From positions 3,213 through 67,212 of the forward strand of contig CAYWRI010000003.1 of NCBI GenBank assembly GCA_964461035.1: a stretch of 64,000 nt of DNA. Direction: 5' to 3'. Each line of letters opens with the position of its first letter. Positions within the stretch are counted from its first letter, which is position 1. Of this stretch, positions 19,067-33,661 are shown in pieces. Both the position numbers and the translations under genes were made by a program. Source of the stretch: an uncultured Methanosarcinales archaeon. Lineage in GTDB: Archaea > Nanobdellota > Nanobdellia > Woesearchaeales > CAYZNE01. A model generated the notes under the pieces. It was not told the DNA's origin and made no database searches. It saw nothing but the letters and a program-made list of their open reading frames with translations.

Positions 19067-20041
19067 ATGAAGAAAGTAAATCCGAGACATGGAAGTATGC
19101 AGGTTTGGCCAAGGAAAAGAGCCAAAAGAGAACAACCTAGAATTAGATCTAGACCTGTTGTTAAAGAAGCTGTTCCTATTGGGTTTGCAGGATATAAAGT
19201 CGGCATGACTCATGTTCAAGCAATTGATGCATACAAAAATTCTATTACAAAAGGTCAAGAGATTAGTGTTCCTGTAACAATTATTGAATGTCCTCCTTTA
19301 AGAATACATTCTTTAAGATGTTATGTTTCAAAAGGTTACGGGTTTGAAATTGCCAATGAAATCTTTTTCAAAGGCACCAAATATACCTCAAGACGCGTTA
19401 CCTTCAAAGTATCTTCTCCTGATAAACTTGATAATCTAAATCTTTCTGATTATCATCATTTTTCAATAACTCTTTCTACTCAACCTAATTTAACTGGTTT
19501 AAAAAAAACTCCTGAAATATTTGAGTTACCAGTTGGTGGAAGTAATGAGGATGTAATTAACTTTGTTAAGGAAAATAAAGAGAAAGACATTAAAGTTTCT
19601 GAAATATTAAAAGAAGGAGACATTGTTGATTTTCATGCTATCACTAAAGGAAAAGGTTATCAGGGTTCAGTAAAAAGATTTGGTATTGGATTAAAAAGTC
19701 ATAAATCAGAAAAAGGACAAAGAGCTCCAGGTTCAATTTCTGGAGGATGGGTTGCACAAGGTCATATGATGTGGAGAGTTGCTTTTCCCGGTCAAATGGG
19801 GTATCATCAAAGAACTCAATATAATTCACAAGTATTCAAAATGTCAGATAAACCTGAAGAGATTAATCCTTCAGGAGATTTTGTTAGATATGGAAAAGTA
19901 AAATCAGATTATATTTTAGTTGCTGGTTCTGTTCCAGGACCTAAAAAAAGATTTGTTGTATTTACAAAAGCAATTAGGCCAACAAAAATCATAAGACCTG
20001 TTCCAACAATTTCAGAAATAAGTTTAGCTTCACAACAATAA
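19067..20041 (+). CDS. rpl3: Ribosomal protein uL3
   Basis: 'PRHGSMQVWPRKRA', 'GYKVGMTHV', 'TKGKGYQG' are uL3 signatures. First gene of the archaeal L3 operon. Confidence 0.92.
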   Translation: MKKVNPRHGSMQVWPRKRAKREQPRIRSRPVVKEAVPIGFAGYKVGMTHVQAIDAYKNSITKGQEISVPVTIIECPPLRIHSLRCYVSKGYGFEIANEIFFKGTKYTSRRVTFKVSSPDKLDNLNLSDYHHFSITLSTQPNLTGLKKTPEIFELPVGGSNEDVINFVKENKEKDIKVSEILKEGDIVDFHAITKGKGYQGSVKRFGIGLKSHKSEKGQRAPGSISGGWVAQGHMMWRVAFPGQMGYHQRTQYNSQVFKMSDKPEEINPSGDFVRYGKVKSDYILVAGSVPGPKKRFVVFTKAIRPTKIIRPVPTISEISLASQQ

Positions 20042-20091
20042 ACCATAATTACACTAATTGATAATAAACTAACTATATAATAAAAGAAAAA

Positions 20092-21228
20092 ATGAAATTA
20101 AAAATATTTGATGCAAAAGGAAATGAAAAAGGGGATGTGGTAATTCCTGCTCAGTTTTCAGAATTATACCGACCTGATTTAATTAAGAAAGCAGTATTGG
20201 TTATTCAAAATAATAGGAGACAACCTTATGGTGCAGATCAAAGAGCCGGTAAAAAACATAGTGCTTTTGTTTCAAAAAGAAGACATGCTTATAGAGGAAC
20301 TTATGGTATAGGACAATCAAGAACTCCTCGAAAAGTTTTAAGTTCAAGAGGAACCAGATTTAATTGGGTTGGAGCTTTTGCACCGCAAACAGTTGGTGGA
20401 AGAAAAGCTCATTCTCCTAAAGCAGATAAGATTTGGACTCAAAATATTAATAAAAAAGAAAATATGAAAGCTATTCGTTCTGCACTTTCAATGGTTTTCA
20501 ATCTTGAATTAGTTAAACAGAGAAATACTAATGTTCCTAAAAATTATCCTTTTATTATTGCAGATGATTTTAATGCAATTGCAAAAACATCTGATCTTAA
20601 AGAATCTCTTAACCAAGTAGGATTTAAAGAAGAATTAATGAGAATTGCTATTCGTAAAATTCGTTCAGGGATTGGTAAATTAAGAGGAAGAAAATATCAA
20701 TCAAAAAGTTCAATATTGTTTGTTGTTGCAGATGATTGTAAATTGTTAAATGCTGTATCAAACTTAAATGGTGTTGATATTGTTAATGTTCATAATTTAA
20801 ATGCAGAGCTTTTAGCTCCTGGAACTCATGCGGGAAGAATTGCATTATTCACAGAATCTGCAATTAAATTAATTGATAAGAAAAAACTTTACACTTTAGA
20901 ATCACTTCCTAAAATTGATTCAGATAATGAACAAGGTAAAGAAGATAAAAAAGTTAAGAAGAAGAAACCCGAAGTTGATAAAAGAAAATTGAGAAGAGAA
21001 AAAAGGAAAGAAAAACTTGCTAAAAATAAAGACAAACCAAAACTTTCAAAATCTAAAAAAACAAAAGTTAAAGAACCAAAAAAAGTTAAGATTAAACCTA
21101 CCAATAATAAAACTAATTCAAAAGAATCTACTGACTCTGTTAAACCTTCAAAAACAGAAAAAGAATCAATAAATAAAATTCAAAAAGGCAAAGGTAAAAA
21201 TGATAATAAAACACCCGATATCAACTGA
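20092..21228 (+). CDS. rpl4: Ribosomal protein uL4 with a roughly 130-aa Lys-rich C-terminal extension
   Basis: 'RPDLIKKAVLV ... RQPYGADQRAGKKHSA ... RRHAYRGTYGIGQSRTPR' matches uL4. The tail is KEK-rich ('KKVKKKKPEVDKRKLRREKRKEK ...'). Confidence 0.9.
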   Translation: MKLKIFDAKGNEKGDVVIPAQFSELYRPDLIKKAVLVIQNNRRQPYGADQRAGKKHSAFVSKRRHAYRGTYGIGQSRTPRKVLSSRGTRFNWVGAFAPQTVGGRKAHSPKADKIWTQNINKKENMKAIRSALSMVFNLELVKQRNTNVPKNYPFIIADDFNAIAKTSDLKESLNQVGFKEELMRIAIRKIRSGIGKLRGRKYQSKSSILFVVADDCKLLNAVSNLNGVDIVNVHNLNAELLAPGTHAGRIALFTESAIKLIDKKKLYTLESLPKIDSDNEQGKEDKKVKKKKPEVDKRKLRREKRKEKLAKNKDKPKLSKSKKTKVKEPKKVKIKPTNNKTNSKESTDSVKPSKTEKESINKIQKGKGKNDNKTPDIN

Positions 21229-21448
21229 AAAAGCGATAAGATTGTTAAATGAAGAGAATAAATTAATCTTTATAGTGGATCGGAAATCAAAGAAAAATGA
21301 AATTGCTATTGAGCTAGAGAAAATGTTTGATGCAAAAGTTGAACAAATAAGAACTCTTATCGATAGAAAAGGAAATAAAAAAGCATATGTTCGTTTTACA
21401 GCAGAAACTCCTGCTTTAGACATAGCTACAAAATTAGGATTATTATAA
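21200..21448 (+). CDS. rpl23: Ribosomal protein uL23
   Basis: 'IIKHPISTEKAIRLL ... IFIVDRKSKKNEI' matches uL23. Overlaps the rpl4 3' end by 29 nt. Confidence 0.88.
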   Translation: MIIKHPISTEKAIRLLNEENKLIFIVDRKSKKNEIAIELEKMFDAKVEQIRTLIDRKGNKKAYVRFTAETPALDIATKLGLL

Positions 21449-21457
21449 GGTGTTAAA

Positions 21458-22165
21458 TTGGGTAAAAGAATAATTCAACAAGCAAGAGGAAAAGGAGGTC
21501 CAAGATATGTTGCACACTCCTTTAGACATAAAGGTCCTGCTAAAGTGTTGAATAAAGAAACTGAAGGAATAGTTGTTGACATAATTAGTTGTCCAGGTCA
21601 TTCAGCTCCACTTGCAGTATTAAAATATCCTGAATTAAATTCATATGGTTTGATAATTGCTCCGGAAGGATTGCAAGTTAATCAAATAATAAAAATAAGT
21701 AAAACTGCTGAAGTAAGTATTGGTAATACATTACCCTTGAACTTGATTCCTGAAGGCGTAGTTATTTATAATATTGAAGGTGTTCCTGGTGATGGCGGTC
21801 GTTTTGTTAGAGCTTCGGGTGTTGGTGCAAGAATAATCACAAAAACTCCAACAAAAATTGTTATTGAATTACCTTCAAAAAAGAAAAAAGAATTTCATCC
21901 TAATTGCAGAGCTACAATTGGTAATGTTGCGGGTTCAGGAAGAGTTGAAAAACCTTTTTTCAAAGCAGGAAGAAAGTTTTATGCTATGCGTGCTAAAAAT
22001 AAGCTTTGGCCTATAGTTTCAGGTGGAGCAATGAATGCAGTTGATCACCCATTTGGTAATAAAAGGTCTAGTAGAAAAGCAAAAGCAAAACCTGTACCTA
22101 AAAATGCACCGCCTGGAAGAAAAGTTGGTATGTTAAGACCAAAACATACTGGAAGAAATAAGTAG
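21458..22165 (+). CDS. rpl2: Ribosomal protein uL2 (TTG start preceded by an AGGTG SD)
   Basis: 'GKRIIQQARGKGG', 'GGRFVRASG', 'HPFGNK', 'RSSRKAK' match uL2. 'taaggtg' lies 6 nt upstream of the TTG at 21458. Confidence 0.92.
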   Translation: MGKRIIQQARGKGGPRYVAHSFRHKGPAKVLNKETEGIVVDIISCPGHSAPLAVLKYPELNSYGLIIAPEGLQVNQIIKISKTAEVSIGNTLPLNLIPEGVVIYNIEGVPGDGGRFVRASGVGARIITKTPTKIVIELPSKKKKEFHPNCRATIGNVAGSGRVEKPFFKAGRKFYAMRAKNKLWPIVSGGAMNAVDHPFGNKRSSRKAKAKPVPKNAPPGRKVGMLRPKHTGRNK

Positions 22166-22188
22166 TTCAATAATAAAGGTTGTAAAAG

Positions 22189-22560
22189 ATGACTAAAAAA
22201 ATATTCAATTATCGTGGAAAAACAATGGAAGAACTTAAAGAGATGTCTTTAAATCAGCTTGCAGAAGTTTTTACTTCCAGAGTTAGGAGAAAAATAAAAA
22301 GAGGTTTTTCAGAACCCAAAAAAATATTCCTAAAAAAAGTAGACTCAAAAAATGTTATTAAAACTCATCATAGAACTGTTCCAATTCTTCCCAAAATGAT
22401 TGGAAAAACAATTAAAGTTTATAATGGTAAATCATTTATAGAAATTATTATAATTCCTGAGATGGTTGGTCATGTACTTGGCGAATTCGCATTTTCAAGA
22501 AGACAGGCAGGACATTCCAAAGCAGGAGTCGGCGATAAAAAAACAAAAAATAAAAGATAA
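22189..22560 (+). CDS. rps19: Ribosomal protein uS19
   Basis: 'RGKTMEELKEMSLNQLAEVFTSRVRRKIKRG ... HHRTVPILPKMIGKTIKVYNGKSF' matches uS19. Confidence 0.92.
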   Translation: MTKKIFNYRGKTMEELKEMSLNQLAEVFTSRVRRKIKRGFSEPKKIFLKKVDSKNVIKTHHRTVPILPKMIGKTIKVYNGKSFIEIIIIPEMVGHVLGEFAFSRRQAGHSKAGVGDKKTKNKR

Positions 22561-22571
22561 TTAACGATACT

Positions 22572-23306
22572 ATGGCAGCATACAATTATTCAATAAAAGA
22601 ACTGAAAGAGAACATGGCAAGAGCTGTTGCTAGAGACGCAGGTGTTTCTACAAAGTATGCTATTGAAACTGTTCATTTTTTAAAAAATAGAACAACTGCT
22701 CAAGCAAAAGCATATTTAGACAAAGTTATTGCTAAAAAAGCAGCAATTCCTTTCAGAAGATTTACTAATGGTGTAGGACATAGAAAAGGACCTAATATGG
22801 CTGCAGGAAGATATCCTAGAAAATTATCTTTAGAACTTATAAGACTAATAAAAAACGTAGAAGCTAATGCTTCAATGAAAGGTCTTGGTGATAACTTAAA
22901 AATCATATATTTTATTGCAAACAAAGCAGCAGTTCCTATGAGATATGGTCGACATCCTAGACGAGAAACAAAGAGAACTCACATTGAAATAATTGTTGAA
23001 GAAGTTGAAGAGAAAAGAGTTAAATCTTCCAAAAAGGCAGATTCTAAATCTAAAAAACCAACTTCGGCAGTTGAGCAAGATAAAAAAAATGTTAAAAAAA
23101 TAACTCCTAATAAATCTGATAAAGTTATAGAAACATCAGAAAAGAATATTAATGTTGATACAATTACTAAAGATAGTAAATCAAATAATTCAAAAGAAGT
23201 TGAAAATAAATTAAAATCAGAAGAAACAAAACCTTTAGAAGAACCTGAAGATTCTGATAATGCAAAAATGAAATCAACTCCTAAAGAGGAATCAAAAAAT
23301 GATTGA
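22572..23306 (+). CDS. rpl22: Ribosomal protein uL22 with a Lys/Glu-rich C-terminal extension
   Basis: 'ARAVARDAGVSTKYAIETVHFLKNRTTAQAKAYLDKVIAKKAAIPF' matches archaeal uL22. The last roughly 100 aa are K/E/S-rich. Confidence 0.88.
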   Translation: MAAYNYSIKELKENMARAVARDAGVSTKYAIETVHFLKNRTTAQAKAYLDKVIAKKAAIPFRRFTNGVGHRKGPNMAAGRYPRKLSLELIRLIKNVEANASMKGLGDNLKIIYFIANKAAVPMRYGRHPRRETKRTHIEIIVEEVEEKRVKSSKKADSKSKKPTSAVEQDKKNVKKITPNKSDKVIETSEKNINVDTITKDSKSNNSKEVENKLKSEETKPLEEPEDSDNAKMKSTPKEESKND

Positions 23307-24249
23307 GAGAAAATTTATTGCTCAAAACCTGAAAGAGTATGCAATAAAACAATTCATTGCAACCAAATTAAGTAGAGTTGGATTGAGTGATATAAAACTT
23401 AAAAGAACCCCCTTAGGAGATAAAATAGTAATAAGTACACTTAGACCGGGATTAGTTGTCGGTAGAGCAGGCTCAACCATAAATATGCTTACAGAAAAAT
23501 TAAAAGAAGAATTCAAACTTAATAATCCTCAAATAGAACTTGAAGAAGTTAAAGATCCTTATAAAGATGCAGATATTGTTGTAGAAACAATAGTAAATTC
23601 ACTAGAAAGATTTGGCTCTAAAAGATTTAAAGGTGTAGGTCACAAAGTAATTAGTGCTGTAATTAAATCAGGAGCATTAGGTGTTGAAATTTTAATAAGT
23701 GGTAAAGTTCCTAGTTCAAGAGCAAAAACTTGGAGATTTTATCAAGGTTATTTAAAAAAATGTGGTGACATATCCGTTAGTGGTGTAAATAAGGCACAGG
23801 GATTTGCTCGATTAAAGTCAGGTGTTGTAGGAGTTCAAGTAAGTATATTACCTGCAGATGTTGTTTTGCCTGATTCCATAAAAATTAAAGATGCTATTAC
23901 TGAAGTTGTTGAAGAAGTAGCTGAAACTAAATTAAGTGATGCTCAAAAAGCAATACTTACTAAATTAGAATCAGAGAATAAGATTGTGGATAAAAAAGAT
24001 AAATCATCTTCAAAATCAAAATCAAAATCTAAACCTAAGAAAAAAAAGACTCAAGATATTTCAGAAAAAAAATCTAAACCTAAGAAAAAATCTACAGACT
24101 CTAAAAACTCAATCGAAGAAAATTCAAATAAAAATAAAAAGGTTAATACAGATAAAGAAGTCAAAGAAGATAATACTCCAAAAAATGATACAAAAGAGAT
24201 TGAAGAAAAAAATAAAATTAAAACTGAAGATGTTGACAAAAAGGAGTAA
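23299..24249 (+). CDS. rps3: Ribosomal protein uS3 (KH domain) with a Lys-rich C-terminal extension
   Basis: 'LGDKIVISTLRPGLVVGRAGSTINMLTEKLKEEF' is the KH/uS3 core. The tail is 'KKDKSSSKSKSKSKPKKKK ...'. Confidence 0.9.
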   Translation: MIERKFIAQNLKEYAIKQFIATKLSRVGLSDIKLKRTPLGDKIVISTLRPGLVVGRAGSTINMLTEKLKEEFKLNNPQIELEEVKDPYKDADIVVETIVNSLERFGSKRFKGVGHKVISAVIKSGALGVEILISGKVPSSRAKTWRFYQGYLKKCGDISVSGVNKAQGFARLKSGVVGVQVSILPADVVLPDSIKIKDAITEVVEEVAETKLSDAQKAILTKLESENKIVDKKDKSSSKSKSKSKPKKKKTQDISEKKSKPKKKSTDSKNSIEENSNKNKKVNTDKEVKEDNTPKNDTKEIEEKNKIKTEDVDKKE

Positions 24250-24252
24250 TAA

Positions 24253-24471
24253 TTGATTAAAATGAAATATGATAAAATAAAAGCGATGTCAGAAGAAGAA
24301 AAAAATAATCTTATGACAGAACTAAAAATGAAACTACTAAAGCTTAATTTACAAGTGTCAACAGGAACAACTTTAAAGAAACCTAAAGAAATAAGAGAGA
24401 TAAAGAAAGATATTGCGCGTATATTAACAACCTTCAATGAACAAAAAGGAGGCTTGAATACAAAAACTTAA
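24253..24471 (+). CDS. rpl29: Ribosomal protein uL29
   Basis: 72 aa. 'KIKAMSEEEKNNLMTELKMKLLKLNLQ' is the uL29 coiled-coil pattern, at the conserved position after rps3. Confidence 0.85.
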   Translation: MIKMKYDKIKAMSEEEKNNLMTELKMKLLKLNLQVSTGTTLKKPKEIREIKKDIARILTTFNEQKGGLNTKT

Positions 24472-24478
24472 AAACAAA

Positions 24479-24793
24479 ATGGCGGAAATATGCCCAACCT
24501 GTGGCTTACCTAAAGAATTATGTGTTTGCGAAGCTATCGCAAAAGAGAGTCAATCCATAGTTGTGAGTGTTGTCAAAAAGAAGTTTGGTAAAAAACACAC
24601 TCTTGTTGAAGGATTAAGTGTTGCGGATTTAAATCTTAAGGATTTAACCAAAGACCTAAAAGGAAAATTTGCTTGTGGAGGCACAGTGAAAAAAGGAGTT
24701 ATTGACCTTCAGGGAAATCATTCCAAGCAAATAAAAGTTGTCCTTATCGAAATGGGGTTTAACGCAGACTCCATAAACATAATAAGAAAGTAA
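24479..24793 (+). CDS. sui1: Translation initiation factor SUI1 (aSUI1/eIF1 homologue)
   Basis: 'MAEICPTCGLPKELCVCEAIAKE ... KFGKKHTLVEGL ... ACGGTVKKGVIDLQGNH' matches archaeal aSUI1. Conserved position between rpl29 and the RNase P protein. Confidence 0.88.
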   Translation: MAEICPTCGLPKELCVCEAIAKESQSIVVSVVKKKFGKKHTLVEGLSVADLNLKDLTKDLKGKFACGGTVKKGVIDLQGNHSKQIKVVLIEMGFNADSINIIRK

Positions 24794-24806
24794 GTAAACA
24801 CTCAAA

Positions 24807-25049
24807 ATGTATAACGAGTTCATCGGTTTTACCCTTGAAGTTGCTGATTCAAAAAACAGTTCACTCATAGGGAAAAAAGGTAAAATAATAGATGAGACCA
24901 AGTACCTCATAATAATTGAGCAAGCTAATGACAATATTGTTAAGATTTTGAAATCAGGAACAACATTTATTATAAATGAAAAAAAAGTTAATGGTGACAA
25001 AATAATTAAGCGACCTGAAGATCGCATCAAACTTATTAAAAAATATTAG
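24807..25049 (+). CDS. rnp1: RNase P protein component 1 (Rpp29/Pop4 homologue)
   Basis: 'SLIGKKGKIIDETKYLIIIEQANDNIVKILKSGTTFII' fits the Rpp29 Sm-like core. Conserved location upstream of rps17. Confidence 0.7.
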   Translation: MYNEFIGFTLEVADSKNSSLIGKKGKIIDETKYLIIIEQANDNIVKILKSGTTFIINEKKVNGDKIIKRPEDRIKLIKKY

Positions 25050-25059
25050 GGTAAATAAT

Positions 25060-25407
25060 ATGAAAAATTCAATTGGAATTCAAGTGAAAAATAAACCAAA
25101 AACAAAATGTGATGATGTTAATTGTCCATTTCATGGAACTGTAAGTTTACATGGTAGAATATTCACTGGAAAAGTTACAAGTGATAAAATGCATAAAACT
25201 GTTACTGTTTTTTGGGAAAGAAGAGTGTTTGTTCCAAAATATGAAAGATATGACCGAAAATTTTCAAAAATAAAAGCACATAATCCTGAATGTATTAATG
25301 CTAAAACAGGAGATATAGTTAGAATTGCTGAAACAAAACCTTTGTCTAAAACAAAGAATTTTGTTGTAATAGAAATTTTAAATAGTAATGAGGCGACAAA
25401 ACAATGA
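25060..25407 (+). CDS. rps17: Ribosomal protein uS17
   Basis: 'CPFHGTVSLHGRIFTGKVTSDKMHKTVTV ... YERYDRK' matches uS17. Confidence 0.9.
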   Translation: MKNSIGIQVKNKPKTKCDDVNCPFHGTVSLHGRIFTGKVTSDKMHKTVTVFWERRVFVPKYERYDRKFSKIKAHNPECINAKTGDIVRIAETKPLSKTKNFVVIEILNSNEATKQ

Positions 25408-25805
25408 AAGCTGTAGCTGCACATATAACCCGTGCATTGAATGTTGGTTCACAATTACAAACTTGTGATAATTCAGGTGCTAAATCACTTAAAATAACAG
25501 GTGTAAAAAGATCCAAAACTGTTAAAGGAAGACTTCCTGCAGCAGGAGTTGGAATGATGGTAACTGCAGCTGTTAAAAAAGGTAAACCTGATATGAGAAA
25601 AAAAGTTGTCTTTGCAGTTATTGTAAGACAAAGACGAGAATATAGACGACCTAATGGTCTTAGAGTTAAATTTGAAAATAATGCGGCAGTAGTATGTAAA
25701 GATGAAAAAGGCAATCCTAAAGGAACAATATTCAAAGGACCAATTGCTAAAGAAGCTTGTACTAAATGGCCAGGAATAGCAAAAGTAGCAAGCATTATTG
25801 TTTAA
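25404..25805 (+). CDS. rpl14: Ribosomal protein uL14
   Basis: 'LQTCDNSGAKSLKITGV' matches uL14. 4-nt overlap with rps17. Confidence 0.92.
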   Translation: MKAVAAHITRALNVGSQLQTCDNSGAKSLKITGVKRSKTVKGRLPAAGVGMMVTAAVKKGKPDMRKKVVFAVIVRQRREYRRPNGLRVKFENNAAVVCKDEKGNPKGTIFKGPIAKEACTKWPGIAKVASIIV

Positions 25806-25820
25806 AATATAGGTGTTCAA

Positions 25821-26285
25821 ATGAAAACAAAATTTTCAACTTCATGGAATTCAAGCAAGCAACCTCGAAAGCAGAGAAAGTATAGATATAATGCTCCGCT
25901 TCATATTAGAGGGAAGTTTCTTGCAGCACATTTATCTCCCGAGTTAAGAAAAAAATATGCTCTTAGATCATTGAGAGTTAGAAAAGGAGATAAAGTTAAA
26001 GTGATGAGAGGCGCTTACAAGGGAAGAGAAGAAAAAGTTGAAATAGTTAATGTTAAACGTGAAAAAGTTTATTTGGAAAAGTTAACTTTGGTTCGTGTTG
26101 ATGGTAATACTGCAAAAATTCCTTTAAATGCATCAAATTTAATGATCATAGAACTTGAGCTTTCAGATAAGTTAAGAAAAAAGAAATTAGAATCATCTAA
26201 TTCAACAACTCCTAAATTAAAATTGGAAAAATCAAAAGAGATAAAAAAAGAATCAATTAAAAAGAAACAAAATGAGGAATTATAA
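25821..26285 (+). CDS. rpl24: Ribosomal protein uL24 (KOW) with a C-terminal Lys-rich extension
   Basis: 'SKQPRKQRKYRYNAPLHIR ... RKGDKVKVMRGAYKGREEKVEIVN' matches archaeal uL24. Confidence 0.88.
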   Translation: MKTKFSTSWNSSKQPRKQRKYRYNAPLHIRGKFLAAHLSPELRKKYALRSLRVRKGDKVKVMRGAYKGREEKVEIVNVKREKVYLEKLTLVRVDGNTAKIPLNASNLMIIELELSDKLRKKKLESSNSTTPKLKLEKSKEIKKESIKKKQNEEL

Positions 26286-26983
26286 TGACTAAATCACACC
26301 TTAAAAGATTATTTGCACCAAAAACTTGGAAGTTGAATAGAAAAACGATTACATTTATTCTTCGACCTAATCCGGGCGCTCATAAGATGCAACTTGCAGA
26401 AACTTTAAACATGTTTATTATTGAATCTGGAAAAGCTTCAAATAAAAAAGAAGTAAATTATATTTTGAATAATCATCAGGTTATTGTCGATGGAAAACAA
26501 AGAAAAGATAGAGCATTCAGTGTTGGTCTTTTTGATTTAATTTCCTATCCAGAACTTAATGAAACTTATACTTTAGTAATGAATAAATTAGGTAAACTTC
26601 AAATTGTAAAAGTTGATTCTGCTTTGAATTCAAGAATAGTATCAATTAAATCAAAGAAAAAAATTCGTGGTAATAAACTTCAAGTTTTTACGAAATGTGG
26701 AAGAACTTTACTTACTGAAGATAAATTTGATAAAGATTATTCGGTTGGTGATAGCTTAAGAATAGAACTTCCAACTCAAAAAGTATTAGCTCATGTTAAA
26801 TTTGAAAAAGGTGCTGAAGTTTTTACTTTTGCAGGTTCACATAAAGGAATAAGTGCAGTTATTCAAAAAATAGAAAACACTAGAATATTTTGTAAATTCA
26901 AAGAAATTGAATTTGAAACAAATAATTATAGCATTATAGTTATAGATGACAAAATGAAAAAATTATTACAAACAATTGATTAA
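26285..26983 (+). CDS. rps4e: Ribosomal protein eS4 (S4e)
   Basis: 'MTKSHLKRLFAPKTWKLNRKT' matches eS4. Stop and start share 1 nt (TAATG). Confidence 0.9.
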   Translation: MTKSHLKRLFAPKTWKLNRKTITFILRPNPGAHKMQLAETLNMFIIESGKASNKKEVNYILNNHQVIVDGKQRKDRAFSVGLFDLISYPELNETYTLVMNKLGKLQIVKVDSALNSRIVSIKSKKKIRGNKLQVFTKCGRTLLTEDKFDKDYSVGDSLRIELPTQKVLAHVKFEKGAEVFTFAGSHKGISAVIQKIENTRIFCKFKEIEFETNNYSIIVIDDKMKKLLQTID

Positions 26984-26985
26984 AA

Positions 26986-27525
26986 ATGGTTCATAATATG
27001 AAAACAATAACTGTGGGAAAATTAACTTTGAACATAGGTGCAGGTAAAGAACAGAAAAATCTTGATAAAGCAATCAAAGTAATTCAAGATATAACTAAAA
27101 TGACTCCTGTTAAAACAACATCCACTAAAAGAATTGCGGGATGGGGTATAAGACTTGGTCTTCCTATTGGTTGTAAATTAACTTTAAGAAAAACTCAAAT
27201 TCCAGAATTACTTAAGAGATTACTTGTCTCAAAAGATAATGTACTTTCAGCTAAATGCTTTGATAACAATGGAAATATTTCATTTGGAATTCCCGAATAT
27301 ATTGATATTCCTGGAACAAATTATGATCCTAAAATTGGAATAATGGGTTTACAAGCAAGTATCACGCTTGTAAGACCTGGGTTTAGAATAAAATTAAGAA
27401 AACTCAATAAAACAAAAATTGGGAAAACTCACAGAATTAGTAAAAAAGATGCTATTGACTTCATGAAACTTAATTATAATGTTAAGATAAAAGAAGAAGT
27501 AGAAGCTGAAGAGGATGATGATTAA
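26986..27525 (+). CDS. rpl5: Ribosomal protein uL5
   Basis: 'KLTLNIGAGKEQKNLDKAIKVIQDITKMTPVKTTSTKRIAGWGIR' matches uL5. Confidence 0.9.
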   Translation: MVHNMKTITVGKLTLNIGAGKEQKNLDKAIKVIQDITKMTPVKTTSTKRIAGWGIRLGLPIGCKLTLRKTQIPELLKRLLVSKDNVLSAKCFDNNGNISFGIPEYIDIPGTNYDPKIGIMGLQASITLVRPGFRIKLRKLNKTKIGKTHRISKKDAIDFMKLNYNVKIKEEVEAEEDDD

Positions 27526-27527
27526 AA

Positions 27528-27758
27528 ATGACAACTTCAGATCCAAAAAAAATGCTTAAGCAACTTGAAGGAAAACCGGGTAAAAAAATAAAATACCTTA
27601 AGCATAATTTACCTAGAGAAAGAAAATTTGGAGAATCAGTTCATAAATGTAGTTTATGTGGAAGAACACATGCTCACATAAGTAAATATGGCTTGAATCT
27701 TTGTAGACAATGCTTTAGGCTTAAAGCAACAAAATTAGGTTTTAAAAAATATAGTTAA
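27528..27758 (+). CDS. rps14: Ribosomal protein uS14 (zinc-binding type)
   Basis: 'CSLCGRTHAHISKYGLNLCRQCFR' is the uS14 CxxC...CxxC motif. Confidence 0.9.
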   Translation: MTTSDPKKMLKQLEGKPGKKIKYLKHNLPRERKFGESVHKCSLCGRTHAHISKYGLNLCRQCFRLKATKLGFKKYS

Positions 27759-27779
27759 GTCATGATTAGGTGTTAAAAA

Positions 27780-28172
27780 ATGAGTTTGAATGATCCGTTG
27801 GCAAATGTGCTGTCACATATAAAAAACTATGAAAATATTGGAAAGACCGAACTAGCGACAGCTAATAATTCCAAAGTTATAAGAAATATATTAAAAATAC
27901 TTCAAACAGAAGGATATATTGGAGACTTTGAAGTTATTGATGATGGGCGAGGAGGAGTTATTAAATTAAATCTTCTTGGTCGTATTAACAAAATTGGTGT
28001 TGTAAAACCTCGGTTTGCTATTAAAAAAACAGACTTTGAAAAGTTTGAAAAAAGATTTTTACCCGCAAGAGGATTTGGTATAATTATAGTATCAACTTCA
28101 ATGGGTATAATGACAAATGTTGCTGCAAAAAAATTAGGTATAGGTGGCAAATTACTTTGTTACTGCTATTAA
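27780..28172 (+). CDS. rps8: Ribosomal protein uS8
   Basis: 'LNDPLANVLSHIKNYENIGK ... KILQTEGYIGDFEVIDDGRGG' matches uS8. Confidence 0.9.
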   Translation: MSLNDPLANVLSHIKNYENIGKTELATANNSKVIRNILKILQTEGYIGDFEVIDDGRGGVIKLNLLGRINKIGVVKPRFAIKKTDFEKFEKRFLPARGFGIIIVSTSMGIMTNVAAKKLGIGGKLLCYCY

Positions 28173-28179
28173 TGTATGA

Positions 28180-28731
28180 ATGAAAATGGTTATAAGATAT
28201 TTTGAAAGAAAAATAGAAATTCCTGAAGGATGTAGTGTTGTAATAGATAATGCACTTATAAAAATTACAAGCCCAAAAGGAAATGTACAGAAAGATATGA
28301 AAAATAAATTAGTAAAATCTGAAGTTACTAAAGATTCTGTTTTACTTTATGCTGAAAAAAATACAAAAACTTTCAAAAAATTAGTTTTCACTTTTTCATC
28401 ACACTTAAAGAATATGTTAACTGGTCTTGTTGAAGGTCATAAATATGTGTTAAAAATATGCTCAGGACATTTTCCAATGTCTGTCGCAGTAAAAGGAAAT
28501 AAGTTTGAAGTGAAGAATTTTATAGGGGAAAATAAACCTCGTATATTAAAACTTCATGAAGGTGTTAGTGTTAAAATGAATGGTACTGAAATTGTTGTTG
28601 AAAGTATAGATAAAGAATTGGCAGGTCAGACTGCTGCAAGTATCGAACAGTTAACCAGAAGACCTGGATTTGATCGTAGGATATTCCAAGATGGAATATA
28701 TATAACAGAAAAAGATGGTAAGAAAATTTAA
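28180..28731 (+). CDS. rpl6: Ribosomal protein uL6
   Basis: Two-domain L6 pattern ('IEIPEGCSVVIDNALIKITSPKGNVQ', 'KYVLKICSGHFPMSVAVKGNKFEVKNFIGE'), at the conserved position. Confidence 0.85.
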   Translation: MKMVIRYFERKIEIPEGCSVVIDNALIKITSPKGNVQKDMKNKLVKSEVTKDSVLLYAEKNTKTFKKLVFTFSSHLKNMLTGLVEGHKYVLKICSGHFPMSVAVKGNKFEVKNFIGENKPRILKLHEGVSVKMNGTEIVVESIDKELAGQTAASIEQLTRRPGFDRRIFQDGIYITEKDGKKI

Positions 28732-28742
28732 TTATAGTTAAA

Positions 28743-29384
28743 ATGGCAGACAAAAAAACATTACTGGATTTAAAGAAGAAAATGAAGGCTAAACGACCTA
28801 CATTTATTAGAAGCAGTGCTAAAATTAAAAAGCGTGTTTCTTGTTCTGGTTGGAGACGACCCAAAGGTCTGCAAAATAAAATGAGACTAAAGAAGAGAGG
28901 ATATCATAGATGTGTTGATACAGGGTATGGAACTCCTAATGAAATTCGTCATGTTGATTTGAAAACGGGTTTACTTTCAATAGTTGTTTCAAGTAAAAAG
29001 GATATTGAAAAAATAGATTCAAAAACTCATGCGGTTATTTTATCTTCCAAACTTGGAATAAAAAAGAAACAAGAATTAATAAAAATTGTTGAAGAGAAAA
29101 AACTTGTACTTGTTCAAGGTCTTGACAAAATTAAAAATTCGGTTGATAAAGCTTTGAAAACAAAGGAACAAAAAAAGAAAGAACAGTTGAATAGAAAAAA
29201 ATCAAAAGAAACTAAACAGAAAAAAGCTTCAGAAGAAAAAAAGAAAAAAGAAAAGAAAAAAGAAGAAGAATCTAAGAAAGGTTCTGAAGATTTAGATACT
29301 TTAGCTAATGATATAAAAGAAGAATCTGATGAGCAAAAAAGTGCTAAAAAAGTATTTACAAAAAAAGATGCTAATAATTTTTAA
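28743..29384 (+). CDS. rpl32e: Ribosomal protein eL32 (L32e) with a K/E-rich C-terminal extension
   Basis: 'KRPTFIRSSAKIKKRVSCSGWRRPKGLQNKMRLKKRGY' matches eL32. The tail is 'KEQKKKEQLNRKKSKETKQKKASEEKKKKEKKKEEE'. Confidence 0.85.
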   Translation: MADKKTLLDLKKKMKAKRPTFIRSSAKIKKRVSCSGWRRPKGLQNKMRLKKRGYHRCVDTGYGTPNEIRHVDLKTGLLSIVVSSKKDIEKIDSKTHAVILSSKLGIKKKQELIKIVEEKKLVLVQGLDKIKNSVDKALKTKEQKKKEQLNRKKSKETKQKKASEEKKKKEKKKEEESKKGSEDLDTLANDIKEESDEQKSAKKVFTKKDANNF

Positions 29385-29412
29385 AAAAATTTAATAATAA
29401 GTGATAATTAAA

Positions 29413-29871
29413 ATGAAACTCGATTTACAAAAAAGACTAGCGGCAAGGATTTTTAAGTCCTCGAAGAACAGAGTTAGATTTGAGACTGATGTTCTTGATG
29501 AAATTAAAGAAGGACTTACTAAATCAGATATGCGTGGAATGATTAATAGAGGTCTTGTATCTTTAAATCCAAAAAAAGGAATTAGTAGAGTAAGAGCTAG
29601 AAAAAGAGCTGAGCAAAAAGCAAAAGGGTTAAGAAAAGGTCCAGGAAAAAGAAAAGGTACAAAAAATGCTAGACAACCCGATAAAGAAACTTGGATGAAT
29701 AAAATAAGATTACAAAGACAATTCCTTAAAGAGTTATATGATAAAAAATATTTATCTACAGCTATTTATAGAAATCTTTACATGAAATCAAAAGGCGGAT
29801 TTTTTAGAAATAAAAGACATATTAAAGTTTATATAGATGATAATAATCTTTCATTGAAAAAAGCTAAATAA
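29413..29871 (+). CDS. rpl19e: Ribosomal protein eL19 (L19e). The start is taken at the internal ATG (MKLDLQKRLAA); the ORF track starts at 29401.
   Basis: 'LDLQKRLAARIFKSSKNRVRFE' is the canonical eL19 N-terminus. Confidence 0.85.
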   Translation: MKLDLQKRLAARIFKSSKNRVRFETDVLDEIKEGLTKSDMRGMINRGLVSLNPKKGISRVRARKRAEQKAKGLRKGPGKRKGTKNARQPDKETWMNKIRLQRQFLKELYDKKYLSTAIYRNLYMKSKGGFFRNKRHIKVYIDDNNLSLKKAK

Positions 29872-29884
29872 CTGGTGAATTATA

Positions 29885-30385
29885 ATGAGACGAAGTGTTC
29901 CAACAATACCCTTAAGACGGAAAAGAGAAAATAAAACAAACTATAGAAAAAGATTTGCTTATCTTAAATCTGGAAAAAATAGACTTGTTATTAGATTAAG
30001 TAATAAATATTTAACACTTCAAATTGTGAATTATACCCCTGCGGGTGACACAATTATAAAGTCTTGTGTATCAAAAGAATTACAAAAATTAGGTTGGACT
30101 AGTTCTTGTAATAATTTACCTGCAGCATATCTTACCGGTTTATTATTAGCGCATAAAATGAATTCAGAAGAAAACAAAGTATGTATTGTTGATTTAGGTC
30201 TGAGAAATCCTAAAAGTGGAAATAGCAAAATTTATGCCGCATTAAGAGGTGCTCTTGAAGGAGGATTAGATTTGCCTGTTGATACAAAAATTTTTCCAAG
30301 TGATGATTCAATAATTGGAAAGCACATAAGTGAAGACTTAGCAAAGTCTGTTGAAGATATAAAGAAAAAAATTCAAATAATTTAA
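29885..30385 (+). CDS. rpl18: Ribosomal protein uL18
   Basis: 'KTNYRKRFAYLKSGKNRLVIRLSNKYLTLQIVNY' matches uL18. Confidence 0.88.
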   Translation: MRRSVPTIPLRRKRENKTNYRKRFAYLKSGKNRLVIRLSNKYLTLQIVNYTPAGDTIIKSCVSKELQKLGWTSSCNNLPAAYLTGLLLAHKMNSEENKVCIVDLGLRNPKSGNSKIYAALRGALEGGLDLPVDTKIFPSDDSIIGKHISEDLAKSVEDIKKKIQII

Positions 30386-30403
30386 TGATTAAGGTAAAGC
30401 AAA

Positions 30404-31315
30404 ATGTCTCCTAAACAAAAAAAACCAAATTCAAAAACAAAATCGGATCTTAAACCTAGAAGAGATAATAATAGGAAAGATAAAAGATTTTCTAATAAAA
30501 GAAAAGATCTTAAACCTAAAGTGTCCAAAAAACAATTAATGGATGCGTGGATTCCTAAAACAGAAATTGGAAAAAAAGTAAAATCAAAAGATATCATAGA
30601 TATAGATACAATTCTTAATTCAGGAATTAATATACTTGAACCAGAAATCGTAGATTTTTTAATTGAGTTAGAAGATGAACTTCTTCTTGTTGGTCAATCC
30701 AAAGGTAAATTTGGTGGTGGTCAGAGAAGAGTTTTTAGACAAACTCAAAAGAAAACCAGAGAAGGTAATAAACCAAAATTTTCAACTGTTTGTGTAGTTG
30801 GAGATAAAGATGGTCATGTTGGTGTTGGGTTTGGTAAAGCAAAAGAAACTGTTCCTGCAAGAGAAAAAGCAAAAAGACAAGCAAAACTAAGCATATTCAA
30901 AATAAGAAGAGGATGCGGAAGTTGGGAGTGTAATTGTGGTGAACCTCACACAGTTCCTTTTGCAGTTGAAGGAAAATGTGGTTCAGTAATTGTTAGATTA
31001 ATGCCTGCACCAAAAGGTAAGGGTTTATGTGTTGAATCAGAAGTCGCAAAAATACTTGCATTTGCAGGTATAAAAGATGTTTGGTCAAAAACTTTTGGTC
31101 AAACAAAAAATCGTCTTAATTTATTCAAAGCAACCGTTGAAGCATTAAAAAAATTATCTTCAACAAAAGTTAGACCATTAGATATAGCTAATTGTTCTAT
31201 AATTGATTATTCTTTAATCAAAAAAGAAAGACAAGAAACAGGTATTGAAGAAAAAAAAGAAATTTTAGAAGAGCCAATACTTAATGTTGAAGAAATAGAA
31301 GATGTTGATAGATAG
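30404..31315 (+). CDS. rps5: Ribosomal protein uS5 with a Lys-rich N-terminal extension
   Basis: 'GGQRRVFRQTQKKTREG ... TVCVVGDKDGHVGVGFGKAKETVPA' matches the uS5 dsRBD and C-domain. The first roughly 50 aa are 'KKPNSKTKSDLKPRRDNNRKDKRF ...'. Confidence 0.9.
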   Translation: MSPKQKKPNSKTKSDLKPRRDNNRKDKRFSNKRKDLKPKVSKKQLMDAWIPKTEIGKKVKSKDIIDIDTILNSGINILEPEIVDFLIELEDELLLVGQSKGKFGGGQRRVFRQTQKKTREGNKPKFSTVCVVGDKDGHVGVGFGKAKETVPAREKAKRQAKLSIFKIRRGCGSWECNCGEPHTVPFAVEGKCGSVIVRLMPAPKGKGLCVESEVAKILAFAGIKDVWSKTFGQTKNRLNLFKATVEALKKLSSTKVRPLDIANCSIIDYSLIKKERQETGIEEKKEILEEPILNVEEIEDVDR

Positions 31316-31322
31316 GTGTAAA

Positions 31323-31727
31323 ATGTCAGAAGAAACTAATAATAAAAAATCTGTAAACGAGAAAATTGCAATTATACTTATTCGAGGAAGAATAGGTATG
31401 AGACATGATATGCGCATGACTGCAGATTTACTTAAATTAATAAAAAAGAATACTTGTGTAGTTCTTGAAAATACTCTTCCGAATAAGGGCATGGTTGAAA
31501 AAATTAAAGATTATGCAACTTATGGACTTTTAGATGATTCAACTCACAAATTACTTATCAGTAAAAGAGCACAGAAAGATAAAGAAGGTAAAGTTTTAAA
31601 CATTTTTAAACTTCATCCTCCTAGAGGCGGATTTGAAAGAAAAGGAACAAAACAGCCTTTTTCCAATGGTGGTGCTTTAGGTAATAGAAAAGATAAAATA
31701 AACTTACTTATACAAAGAATGATTTAG
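31323..31727 (+). CDS. rpl30: Ribosomal protein uL30. The start is taken at the ATG after a GGTG SD; the ORF track starts at 31302.
   Basis: 'IAIILIRGRIGMRHDMRMTADLLKL' matches uL30. Confidence 0.85.
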   Translation: MSEETNNKKSVNEKIAIILIRGRIGMRHDMRMTADLLKLIKKNTCVVLENTLPNKGMVEKIKDYATYGLLDDSTHKLLISKRAQKDKEGKVLNIFKLHPPRGGFERKGTKQPFSNGGALGNRKDKINLLIQRMI

Positions 31728-31728
31728 G

Positions 31729-32208
31729 TTGATTATTATGGTAAATTTTAAAAGAAAAAAGAATACACGGCAAAGAGGAACACACACTCATGGCTGCGGC
31801 TCTAAAAAGAAACGAAGAGGAGCGGGTAATCGTGGTGGACGAGGAGATGCAGGTTCAGGTAAAAGAGGAGATGCAAAAAAACCTAGTTACTGGGCCATAA
31901 AAAATAGATTTGGTAAAAACGGATTCACTTCAAAATCTAAACTAGTAATCAATCAAATAAATTTAGTTGAATTACAATCTGCAGTAGAAACTTATATTAA
32001 ACAAGGCAAAGCTGAACTAAAAGCAGATACTTATATTGTTAATCTTAAAGATATAAAAAGAAATAAATTACTCGGAACTGGAAAATTATACAAGAAATTT
32101 GAAATAACAACAGAATACGCATCAGAAACCGCAGTAAAAAAAGTGCAAGAAGCAGGTGGTAAAGTAATTTTACTTAAATCCTCAGTTGCAAATGAATTAG
32201 AGAAATAG
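31729..32208 (+). CDS. rpl15: Ribosomal protein uL15
   Basis: 'RQRGTHTHGCGSKKKRRGAGNRGGRG' matches uL15. Confidence 0.88.
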   Translation: MIIMVNFKRKKNTRQRGTHTHGCGSKKKRRGAGNRGGRGDAGSGKRGDAKKPSYWAIKNRFGKNGFTSKSKLVINQINLVELQSAVETYIKQGKAELKADTYIVNLKDIKRNKLLGTGKLYKKFEITTEYASETAVKKVQEAGGKVILLKSSVANELEK

Positions 32209-32329: not shown

Positions 32330-33661
32330 ATGGTATCAACTCTAGATAAACTATTATTTAATCTGCCCGAAGTATCTCACCCGACAGAAAAGAAAGTATC
32401 TTTTAAGACTAAAATAAAGTGGACTCTAATTACTCTTGTTTTATTCTTTGTTTTGGGTGTTGTTCCTTTATATGGTGCAGATGCGAGTGTATTACAACAA
32501 TTTGAATATCTTTCTATATTGCTTGGTGCACAATTTGGTTCTTTAATCAGTTTAGGCATTGGTCCTATTGTAACTGCATCCATAGTTTTACAATTACTTA
32601 ATGGCTCAGGAATTGTGAAATTTGATCTTTCATCAGATAATGGTAAAAAAAGATTTCAAGGAGTTCAAAAATTACTTGCAATGTTTTTTATACTTTTTGA
32701 AGCATACATATATGTTGCGGTTGGCGGATTAAAAGCAATGCCTGGTGTTTCTCCTGTACTTATTATTGGTCAATTAATACTGGGTGGAATCTTAATTATG
32801 TTTATGGATGAAGTAATAACTAAATGGGGATTTGGTTCAGGAATAAGTTTGTTCATTGCTGCAAATGTTTCTCAGTCTTTATTCGTTAGAATCTTTAGTC
32901 CACAGCATCTTCAGGGAAGTAATTATTCTGTAGGTGCATTATTTGCATTAGTACAAGCATTTGCAGATAATAATCCTCAAACAGCAGGATTAATGCTTGC
33001 AGCACTTCTTGCAACCGCAGGTGTTTTCTTATTAGTAGTTTATGTTCAATCAATGAATATTGAAATTCCTTTATCATATGGTCGAGTTAGAGGTTTTGGT
33101 ATAAGATGGCCCTTAAAATTTTTATATACTAGTAATATTCCAGTTATATTAATTGCAGCTTTAATGGCAAACATACAATTATTTGCTCGATTATTTGGAA
33201 ATAATGGTTCTGGGGGAATAATTGCTTGGTTACAGGCACCTAAGCTGATTGAATTAATTATAAAAGGGAGTGTAGCTCCAATAAACTTTGCTCAAGCACT
33301 AGTTTATCTGTTGATTTTAGTTAGTGGAGCAGTATTATTTAGTATGTTTTGGGTTCAAACATCGGGTCTTGATGCTAGAAGTCAGGCTAAAAAAATAATG
33401 GAATCAGGCTTACAAATGCCTGGTTTTAGAAGAGATGCACGAGTTTTAGAAAAAGTGCTCAATAGATATATTACTCCTTTAACTGTTATGGGTGGAATAA
33501 CTGTGGGTCTTTTAGCAGGTCTTGCAGATATTGCAGGAGCGTTGGCTAATGGAACAGGTATTTTATTGGCTGTTATGATTATTTATCAATTGTATGAACA
33601 GATAGCTCAACAACATATGATGGATATGAATCCTATGATGCGAAAATTCATGGGTAAATAA
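32330..33661 (+). CDS. secY: Preprotein translocase subunit SecY
   Basis: Ten-TM protein at the conserved end of the r-protein cluster. 'KLLFNLPEV ... KIKWTLITLVLFFVLGVVPLYG' matches the SecY N-terminus; the plug/TM2 region is present. Confidence 0.9.
   Translation: MVSTLDKLLFNLPEVSHPTEKKVSFKTKIKWTLITLVLFFVLGVVPLYGADASVLQQFEYLSILLGAQFGSLISLGIGPIVTASIVLQLLNGSGIVKFDLSSDNGKKRFQGVQKLLAMFFILFEAYIYVAVGGLKAMPGVSPVLIIGQLILGGILIMFMDEVITKWGFGSGISLFIAANVSQSLFVRIFSPQHLQGSNYSVGALFALVQAFADNNPQTAGLMLAALLATAGVFLLVVYVQSMNIEIPLSYGRVRGFGIRWPLKFLYTSNIPVILIAALMANIQLFARLFGNNGSGGIIAWLQAPKLIELIIKGSVAPINFAQALVYLLILVSGAVLFSMFWVQTSGLDARSQAKKIMESGLQMPGFRRDARVLEKVLNRYITPLTVMGGITVGLLAGLADIAGALANGTGILLAVMIIYQLYEQIAQQHMMDMNPMMRKFMGK

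Follow-up and report, generated by a model that had tools for sequence, protein, structure and literature searches.

A 64,000-nucleotide (nt) stretch of contig CAYWRI010000003.1, which as a whole we call the window, carries on its forward strand a cluster of ribosomal protein (r-protein) genes running from uL3 to uL15 (positions 19067..32208), and six of the encoded proteins, uL4, uL22, uS3, uL24, eL32 and uS5, continue beyond their conserved cores into long terminal segments, most of them rich in lysine. The cluster was delimited from open reading frames (ORFs), Pfam matches and, for the unextended genes, homology to related loci, and it reads uL3-uL4-uL23-uL2-uS19-uL22-uS3-uL29-SUI1-Rpp29-uS17-uL14-uL24-eS4-uL5-uS14-uS8-uL6-eL32-eL19-uL18-uS5-uL30-uL15; all 24 of the 24 expected genes are present by the ORF list and Pfam, and they lie close together, the junctions measuring -29 to +50 nt. 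The lengths given in a preliminary description of this DNA, 378 amino acids (aa) for uL4, 244 for uL22, 316 for uS3, 154 for uL24, 213 for eL32 and 303 for uS5, are exact. The G+C content (GC) is about 27% throughout the window, and the host, which that description took to be a reduced archaeon, is, going by the record titles of its relatives, a DPANN-type (Woesearchaeota-like) archaeon; the database names of the eL32 and uL4 homologues likewise fit Woesearchaeota/Nanoarchaeota.

The limits of the cores were set in two independent ways, from Pfam domains and from alignments with the chains seen in solved archaeal ribosomes, which measure 246-255 aa for uL4 (one of 285), 150-156 for uL22 (one of 184), 201-229 for uS3 (one of 318), 118-128 for uL24, 123-161 for eL32 and 202-236 for uS5. 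The ends of these solved chains map to window residues ~261 in uL4, ~146 in uL22, ~205 in uS3, ~124 in uL24, 122-128 in eL32 and 42-262 in uS5. The uL4 gene (20092..21228, +) has a core of residues 1-261, with the Ribosomal_L4 family PF00573 at 19-263 (112.2 bits against a cut-off of 25.8) and an E-value of 1e-50 to archaeal uL4 chains; residues 1-261 match 1-250 of the 255-aa Thermococcus-type chain 6skf_BE. What follows is a C-terminal tail of 117 aa (residues 262-378; 20875..21225, +) with a lysine fraction of 0.33 and a net charge of +25. In uL22 (22572..23306, +; core 1-146) the PF00237 match at 18-143 is marginal (28.7 bits, cut-off 28.0), while the protein aligns with solved archaeal uL22 at an E-value of 6.5e-24, its residues 4-146 matching 6-155 of a 156-aa chain, and its gene position is conserved. 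The 98-aa tail of uL22 (residues 147-244; 23010..23303, +) is rich in S, E, D and N in addition to lysine (0.24) and has a net charge of about +4, and its stop codon overlaps the start of uS3 by 8 nt.

The uS3 gene (23299..24249, +; core 1-205) encodes the KH_2 (16-87, 45.1 bits) and Ribosomal_S3_C (108-183, 44.9 bits) domains in the expected order and matches solved archaeal uS3 at an E-value of 2e-49, with residues 2-204 corresponding to 3-203 of a 209-aa chain. Its 111-aa tail (residues 206-316; 23914..24246, +; lysine 0.31) includes SKSKSKSKPKKKK, and the lysine-rich stretch KSKSKSKPKKKK quoted in the preliminary description is indeed found in uS3. The tail of uL24 (gene 25821..26285, +; PF16906 at 12-125, 90.6 bits, above cut-off) is much shorter, covering residues 125-154 (30 aa, lysine 0.30; 26193-26282, +) behind a core in which residues 11-124 match 4-117 of a 121-aa chain. 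The eL32 gene (28743..29384, +) has a core of residues 1-128 with PF01655 at 19-121 (74.3 bits, above cut-off) and an extension of 85 aa (129-213); the solved archaeal chains stop 5-10 residues past the aligned core. Finally, uS5 (30404..31315, +; core 45-262) has PF00333 at 112-168 (65.2 bits) and PF03719 at 190-255 (74.8 bits), both above cut-off, with residues 42-262 matching 9-219 of a 236-aa chain, and it is extended at both ends: 44 basic N-terminal residues (1-44; 30404..30535, +; lysine 0.32, net +15) and 41 acidic C-terminal ones (263-303; 31190..31312, +; glutamate 0.24, lysine 0.10, net -7). The excess of 50 to 130 aa over archaeal orthologues suggested at first thus applies to uL4, uL22, uS3 and eL32, while uL24 is longer by only about 30 aa; and for uS5 the N-terminal extension stood, with the addition of a C-terminal one that is acidic rather than lysine-rich.

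Taken together, the extensions amount to 526 aa, about 60 kDa and a net charge of +61. Their lysine fraction is 0.24-0.34, against about 0.10-0.15 in the cores, with the acidic C-terminal tail of uS5 as the exception; charged residues make up 0.46-0.58 of the tails, and hydrophobic residues 0.11-0.18 as opposed to 0.36-0.45 in the cores. Shannon entropy in 20-residue windows is 2.5-2.9 bits in the tails and 3.2-3.4 bits in the cores, and every low-entropy segment is terminal. The KSK/KEK repeats originally ascribed to these segments did not materialize as such: Tandem Repeats Finder detected no true tandem repeats in them, yielding only arrays of 15-55 nt with scores of 30-64 (for example, TCAAAA x4), and the tails are degenerate low-complexity sequence rather than repeats. 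None of the tails matches a Pfam family at E <= 1, the eukaryotic uL4 C-terminal family included, and the full-length uL4 yields PF00573 only. Lysine-rich stretches of at least 42 aa occur in 6 of the 25 r-proteins of the window and in 3 of its approximately 51 other ORFs (Fisher p = 0.05), and the r-proteins eS6 and eL15, which lie elsewhere in the window, have no such tail. The sole long lysine-rich tail in the window outside the r-proteins belongs to a 107-aa ORF on the opposite strand (3497-3820, -), the histone H1-like C-terminal tail of which (KKPVKKKKTKRKATKKKTVKKSSKK) follows a helical-looking N-terminal part without a Pfam match.

We then considered whether the tails could be artefacts of frameshift, read-through or misassembly, given that A-rich, homopolymer-like DNA is error-prone and that the databases contain one uL4 variant of 389 aa. 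The DNA of the tails is 52-59% A, and AAA accounts for 88% of their lysine codons. However, the identical 316-aa uS3 is present on four contigs, the identical uL4 in four collections (NCBI, JGI, Logan and ENA), and the identical eL32 in NCBI, with a variant differing by a single substitution elsewhere. In nucleotide shuffles of the long tails, an open frame survived in 0 of 20000 trials for uL4, 0 of 20000 for uL22, 1 of 20000 for uS3 and 6 of 20000 for eL32, corresponding to odds of 1e-4 to 1e-5, and the tails end at or within the start of the next gene, with tail junctions of -29 to +16 nt. No A-run in the tails exceeds 8 nt, whereas permutation of AAA and AAG among the lysine positions gives a mean longest run of 13.1 nt and 5.4 runs of at least 9 nt, and in 0 of 5000 permutations were the runs as short as those observed; 15 of the 19 AAG codons adjoin another lysine codon. 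Such a pattern would be expected from selection against slippage-prone homopolymers in a sequence whose frame has to stay open. The 389-aa variant was rejected as an in-frame length polymorphism: it derives from the same DNA, is identical over 378 aa, and results from two TGA codons read as Trp, the public gene call having used the wrong genetic code (389 instead of 378 aa; protein P0230, window 21226-21261). Since identical tails recur in independent assemblies, the frames are open, and dozens of genomes from different studies bear tails, an artefactual origin appears extremely improbable; the tails are neither absent from relatives nor attributable to frameshift or misassembly, the circumstances under which the preliminary description would have had them dismissed.

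The distribution of the tails was followed in related loci found through uL14, the best of which are 81-83% identical; most are metagenome-assembled genomes (MAGs) titled Woesearchaeota or Nanoarchaeota, with a few Micrarchaeota and one Bathyarchaeota. Tail length was counted as the residues past the position matching the core end in the window, in 80 related loci, with counts varying by protein. Tails are borne on the same proteins by 52-80 related genomes. Tails of at least 20 aa are present in 98% of relatives for eL32 (median 74 aa), in 96% of 70 relatives for uS3 (median 54 aa), in 55% for uL22 (0-150 aa, median 24), in 51% for uL18 (maximum 34 aa), in 33% for uS5 (C-terminal, 0-149 aa), in 28% for uL4 (0-67 aa), in 27% for uL24 (0-127 aa), and in 14-25% for uL15, uS17 and eL19 (maximum 58-77 aa). 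In uL3, uL23, uL2, uS19, uL5, uS14, uS8 and uL6 the share is 0%, with a maximum of 0-11 aa. The N-terminal extension of uS5 varies from 0 to 120 aa and may be basic or acidic, some being Glu/Val-rich and acidic. In the Micrarchaeota loci, uL22, uS3, uL24 and eL19 bear long tails as well; the one Bathyarchaeota locus shows tails of 34 aa on uS3 and 23 aa on uL24 and none on uL22, and these, when pooled, are Glu/Ala-rich and contain no lysine. The tails are therefore a trait of Woesearchaeota/Nanoarchaeota-type DPANN archaea, found also in Micrarchaeota, and not a peculiarity of one contig, although the window is well endowed: its uL4 tail is the longest among 65 relatives, and its six-protein tail sum of 473 aa is the second largest of 53 (median 201). 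Over the 52 genomes with complete clusters, summed tail length runs from about 100 to 480 aa.

Several features of individual loci may be mentioned here. The uL18 of the window (29885-30385) has no tail, while about half of the relatives have a uL18 C-terminal tail of 20-34 aa, so that tail possession is mosaic. The 67-aa uL4 "tail" of locus L081 is in fact uL23 read in the same frame, owing either to fusion of uL4 with uL23 or to loss of a stop codon. The nearest of the relatives (L002-L004, L006, L012 and others) are titled "uncultured Methanosarcinales archaeon", but their r-proteins group with those of Woesearchaeota/Nanoarchaeota, and they are probably mislabelled MAGs.

While the presence of tails is widespread, their sequence turns over rapidly. 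The tails of uS3, uL4 and uL22, with lengths of 0-170 aa, are unalignable past the first residues even where the cores are 66-69% identical: the alignment of uL4 with its nearest relative (69% identity) covers the core only, and that of the uS3 tail with its nearest relative extends over the first ~25 residues. Blocks within tails have been duplicated and rearranged, as seen between L002 and L003 and among L012, L015 and L019. The composition, on the other hand, is held constant. Pooled tail length shows no relation to GC (rho -0.02), mean length is unchanged across GC bins, and the ratio of tail to core lysine is 2.02, 2.00, 2.03 and 1.98 in four GC bins spanning 0.20-0.70; compared with the cores, arginine is 2-5 fold lower and glutamate about 3 fold higher. 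In high-GC tails, Ala and Pro take the place of Ser and Asn, with lysine still dominant. AT bias as the sole cause is ruled out by this GC-binned comparison, in which tail composition held from 25 to 63% GC; it shapes the tails of the window without explaining their existence. In locus L069 (57% GC), the same r-proteins bear tails that are strongly acidic (Asp/Glu/Thr), as is seen in halophiles.

These observations bear on the possibility that the tails are a neutral by-product, in which slippage in the AAA-rich DNA of an AT-rich symbiont with a small population inflates the 3' ends of genes to yield harmless and functionless additions. The A- and AAA-richness noted above, the traces of microsatellites, the variable length and unconserved sequence of the uS3, uL4 and uL22 tails, the shuffling of blocks, and the complete lack of uL4, uL22 and uL24 tails in many relatives would all agree with such an origin. 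It would not predict, however, that tail length is independent of GC and that lysine remains at twice the core level up to 63% GC, that long A-runs are avoided, or that long lysine-rich stretches are rare in the other proteins of the window. Nor does it account for the junctions, which in 61-79 relatives are tight at any tail length (for uL22-uS3 the median is -4 nt, and 60 nt is exceeded in 1 of 69), meaning that the extra DNA is almost exclusively open reading frame, as opposed to decayed spacer, and that decayed remnants are nearly missing from these genomes. An additional 526 aa on the most abundant proteins would presumably be costly for a reduced organism, and the eL32 tail, described below, combines an architecture that is conserved with a motif selected at the protein level. 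On balance we regard a purely neutral origin as unlikely.

Two further elements were encountered in the tails of relatives. The peptide VPTA(A/K)EL occurs 9 times in the 5,682 ORFs of the related loci, in all nine cases inside r-protein tails, namely those of uL22 in L012, L015 and L019 and of uS3 in L054, L056, L060, L061 and L064, which represent two subclades; it could represent a common docking motif or a piece of tail that was transferred. The uS5 tails of L046, L047 and L050 end in a helix-hairpin-helix (HhH) domain, HHH_5 (PF14520, E-values of 1e-12 to 1e-14, above the curated cut-off), preceded by a Lys/Ala/Pro-rich linker. HhH is a folded nucleic-acid-binding module, and uS5 is a small-subunit protein situated at the messenger RNA entry side. 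The HhH endings in these three relatives lend indirect support to nucleic-acid binding by the tails, which is plausible. The endings of the uL22 (D/E-K-K) and uS5 (K-N-E) tails were not counted as protein motifs, as they overlap the start of the next gene, and a constraint at the DNA level is equally likely.

It was also proposed that the tails may substitute for missing ribosomal RNA (rRNA) helices or r-proteins, much as protein stands in for RNA in mitochondrial ribosomes. The organism does belong to a genome-reduced lineage, the tails add about 60 kDa and +61 of charge, and they are placed at peripheral termini where, from general knowledge, eukaryotic extensions pack against rRNA expansion segments. 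Yet nothing is missing from the set of expected cluster genes, and a structural replacement is normally conserved and ordered, while these tails are hypervariable and often absent in close relatives; that of uL4 is predicted to be disordered, with an AlphaFold2 predicted local distance difference test (pLDDT) score of 39-64 over residues 270-378 (alignment of 62 sequences). Compensation of this kind therefore seems improbable to us.

The tail of eL32 stands apart from the rest. AlphaFold2, supplied with an alignment of 61 sequences, predicts for residues 127-191 (29121..29315, +) a continuous K/E-rich alpha-helix of the ER/K type, with pLDDT of 90-97 up to approximately residue 170, and opposite charges are paired at i,i+4 in 17 instances, compared with 10.5 in shuffled sequences (P = 0.009). 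Of 109 database homologues of eL32, 104 measure 166-254 aa, with one Thermoproteota homologue of 138 aa and another of 126 aa. The variable K/E helix is followed by a clade-wide peptide, (E)KKEKDK(I/L/V)L(T/I)KK, which sits 2-3 residues short of the C-terminus; within the linker the same pattern was matched twice in 4863 residues. For the invariant Leu of the clade-wide peptide all six codons are in use, and for its Thr all four, and the constraint on the motif therefore acts on the protein; for the same reason we ruled out that it represents the ribosome-binding site of the downstream eL19 gene. The copy in the window, KKVFTKK, occupies residues 202-208 (29346..29366, +), and its K203 belongs to an alignment column with at least 90% conservation. 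Even the acidic-tailed L069 retains the peptide, as KEKVLTKK. The eL32 tail thus looks like a rigid charged helix of about 65 residues that would present the conserved KDK(I/L/V)LTKK away from the large subunit, and the combination of a helix with a conserved tip implies a specific contact.

In our view, the observations are best accommodated, with somewhat better than even confidence, by regarding the tails as genuine, lineage-typical additions with a selected composition, to which eL32 adds a specific arm. Their positions are fixed, comprising the C-termini of uL4, uL22, uS3, uL24 and eL32 and both termini of uS5, joined in relatives by the C-termini of uL18, uL15, uS17 and eL19; these are mostly the termini that eukaryotes extended independently, which suggests solvent-pointing ends that leave steric room for added chain. 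The tails would be created and remodelled as A-rich coding DNA undergoes slippage, small duplications and in-frame indels, and their length and sequence would therefore change fast, while selection would preserve the frame, the absence of long A-runs, and a composition of about 30% lysine and 15-18% glutamate with almost no arginine or hydrophobic residues. Most tails may then serve in a generic capacity, as flexible charged surface chains that bind and neutralize rRNA or other nucleic acids non-specifically and help to keep the particle soluble. The eL32 tail would differ in being a rigid helix that holds a conserved tip for a specific contact.

A number of points weigh against this interpretation. 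The tails of uL4, uL22 and uL24 are completely absent from many relatives, and such hypervariability in length and presence implies that individual tails are dispensable, which fits weak or no function. The constant composition could reflect a tolerance filter, by which only soluble K/E chains are harmless, rather than positive selection. Location on the solvent surface is argued from general ribosome structure and from the eukaryotic parallel, and the tails, known at the gene level, could be trimmed in mature ribosomes. AlphaFold2 readily gives confident helices for K/E-rich sequence, and the motif in the eL32 of the window itself has diverged, if recognizably. Finally, the non-DPANN baseline consists of about ten solved archaeal ribosomes and a few database hits, and the taxonomy of the relatives is that of their record titles, some of which are evidently wrong.

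A more ambitious possibility is that the tails form a system of appendages, in which eL32 provides an arm of about 10 nm that docks a partner through its tip, and in which recurrent peptides such as VPTA(A/K)EL and the HhH domains of uS5 act as tethers for defined ligands. Candidates for the partner of the eL32 tip would then be a site on the rRNA, the other subunit, an adjacent ribosome, or a component of the host or of a membrane. We put this forward tentatively and consider it rather doubtful; if it were true, the ribosome surface of an episymbiont would have evolved docking elements that play a part comparable to that of expansion segments and extensions in eukaryotes, but are built of protein and of independent origin.

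The SecY gene (32330-33661) follows directly after the cluster, and no rRNA or transfer RNA genes were found in the 64-kb window. Gene calls from a matching public contig place SUI1 (aIF1) and the RNase P protein Rpp29 between uL29 and uS17 (24479-25049), both without a tail; their presence inside an r-protein cluster is ordinary for archaea. The tails also leave a conspicuous mark on the annotation, as had been suspected from the many alternate-frame and antisense ORFs listed for this region: their +1 and -1 frames are nearly stop-free (0-5 stops, versus 4-26 in frame +2), and the listed antisense ORFs overlie them. The A-rich tail DNA yields a spurious antisense ORF of 128 aa, rich in F, L and S (24051..24437, -), and further spurious ORFs at 20889-21104(-), 21166-21423(-), 22896-23078(-) and 23984-24256(+). 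In practical terms, the tails account for spurious ORFs in DPANN gene calls and for length "anomalies" that might pass for assembly errors; masking of the tails is advisable when marker proteins are aligned.

Comparison with known systems begins with eukaryotes, whose r-proteins the tails had been said to resemble. In solved eukaryotic structures uL4 measures 330-427 aa and uL22 153-213 aa, uS3 reaches 281 aa and uL24 157 aa, and uS5 has N-terminal additions; the same terminus is thus extended in five of the six proteins, with a total length similar to or greater than that seen here (378 aa in the uL4 of the window). The resemblance holds for position, with no match in sequence. An ancestral eukaryote-like feature retained in these archaea would explain the shared proteins and termini, and a few phmmer alignments of uL4 do continue into eukaryotic extensions (one of them pairs window residues 15-344 with Euglena 6zj3_LR), as does the alignment of the uL24 tail with that of human uL24 (15-150). 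Such occasional long alignments are nevertheless expected from composition alone between lysine-rich sequences, and most alignments to solved structures end at the core. Eukaryotic extensions constitute conserved families that fold onto rRNA, the uL4 C-terminal domain being one of them, whereas the tails described here belong to no such family, are unalignable even within their own clade, and in the case of eL32 are without a counterpart extension in eukaryotes. Homology is accordingly very improbable, and the five shared termini are better read as convergence at permissive, solvent-facing sites. In the relative L008, the uS5 N-terminal extension contains RGGP repeats (RGGPRGGPRGGPRGG), recalling the Arg/Gly-rich N-terminus of eukaryotic uS5.

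The predicted eL32 helix invites comparison with ER/K single alpha-helices (SAHs), which serve as spacers in myosins VI and X. It is similar to them in its richness in Glu and Lys, in forming one predicted helix of 65 residues, and in its excess of opposite charges at i,i+4, but it differs in being known from prediction, in being attached to an r-protein, and in ending in a conserved peptide.

Among prokaryotes, low-complexity regions (LCRs) of r-proteins have been surveyed (Ntountoumi et al. 2019, PMC6821194); they are frequent and mostly C-terminal, were reported to be placed on the ribosome surface, and have a composition dominated by Ala, Glu and Lys. That survey covered 102 archaeal proteomes of the cultured type, with a mean LCR length of 36 aa; 15% of archaeal r-protein LCRs are at least 30% Lys, and the main archaeal carriers are L12, L10, S24e and S3, the uS3 protein thus being among the recurrent ones (PMC6821194). 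The tails in the window are likewise low in entropy, terminal and lysine-rich; what sets them apart is that segments of 30-117 aa are borne by six proteins of a single operon, including uL4, uL22, eL32, uL24 and uS5, and that they occur clade-wide in DPANN archaea. In Parcubacteria, members of the candidate phyla radiation (CPR), uS19 has an Ala/Lys-rich C-terminal region of about 25 aa (Tsurumaki et al. 2022, PMC9297842). This, too, is a lineage-specific lysine-rich C-terminal addition in an ultra-small, genome-reduced and probably symbiotic radiation, although it concerns a single bacterial protein, and uS19 is never tailed in our archaeal set.

Two eukaryotic systems offer looser parallels. 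Mosquito RpS6 and RpL23a have histone H1-like lysine-rich extensions (Hernandez and Fallon 2007, as cited in PMC11764897), which, as far as the cited account goes, were also acquired independently as low-complexity terminal additions to conserved r-proteins; by the same account, they differ in belonging to an animal, in affecting other proteins and in having an Ala/Lys/Pro composition, with no conserved terminal peptide reported there. The small nucleolar ribonucleoprotein (snoRNP) proteins Nop56, Nop58 and dyskerin have lysine-rich, disordered KKE/D domains, for which electrostatics are described as mattering, and not sequence (PMC11528048). These are similarly K/E/D-rich tails on RNA-protein particles, but they are nucleolar and eukaryotic.

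The proteins of the ribosome count among the most conserved and most highly expressed of all, and some 60 kDa of extra chain maintained on each ribosome in organisms that otherwise shed genes calls for an explanation. In these tails, the target of selection appears to be composition, frame and the avoidance of homopolymers, and not the sequence as such; because the affected termini are largely those that eukaryotes extended, the tails may also help to map where the ribosome can grow, and the eL32 helix, ending in its conserved tip, offers a concrete candidate for a ribosome contact specific to the lineage. A literature search in a limited library yielded general studies of r-protein LCRs and of CPR ribosomes but no description of r-protein tails in DPANN archaea or of the eL32 helix and motif, which is weak evidence of novelty. 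C-terminal LCRs of prokaryotic r-proteins are already known, and the DPANN pattern, together with the eL32 arm, may be placed among them as an added member, of which eL32 may merit a separate study.

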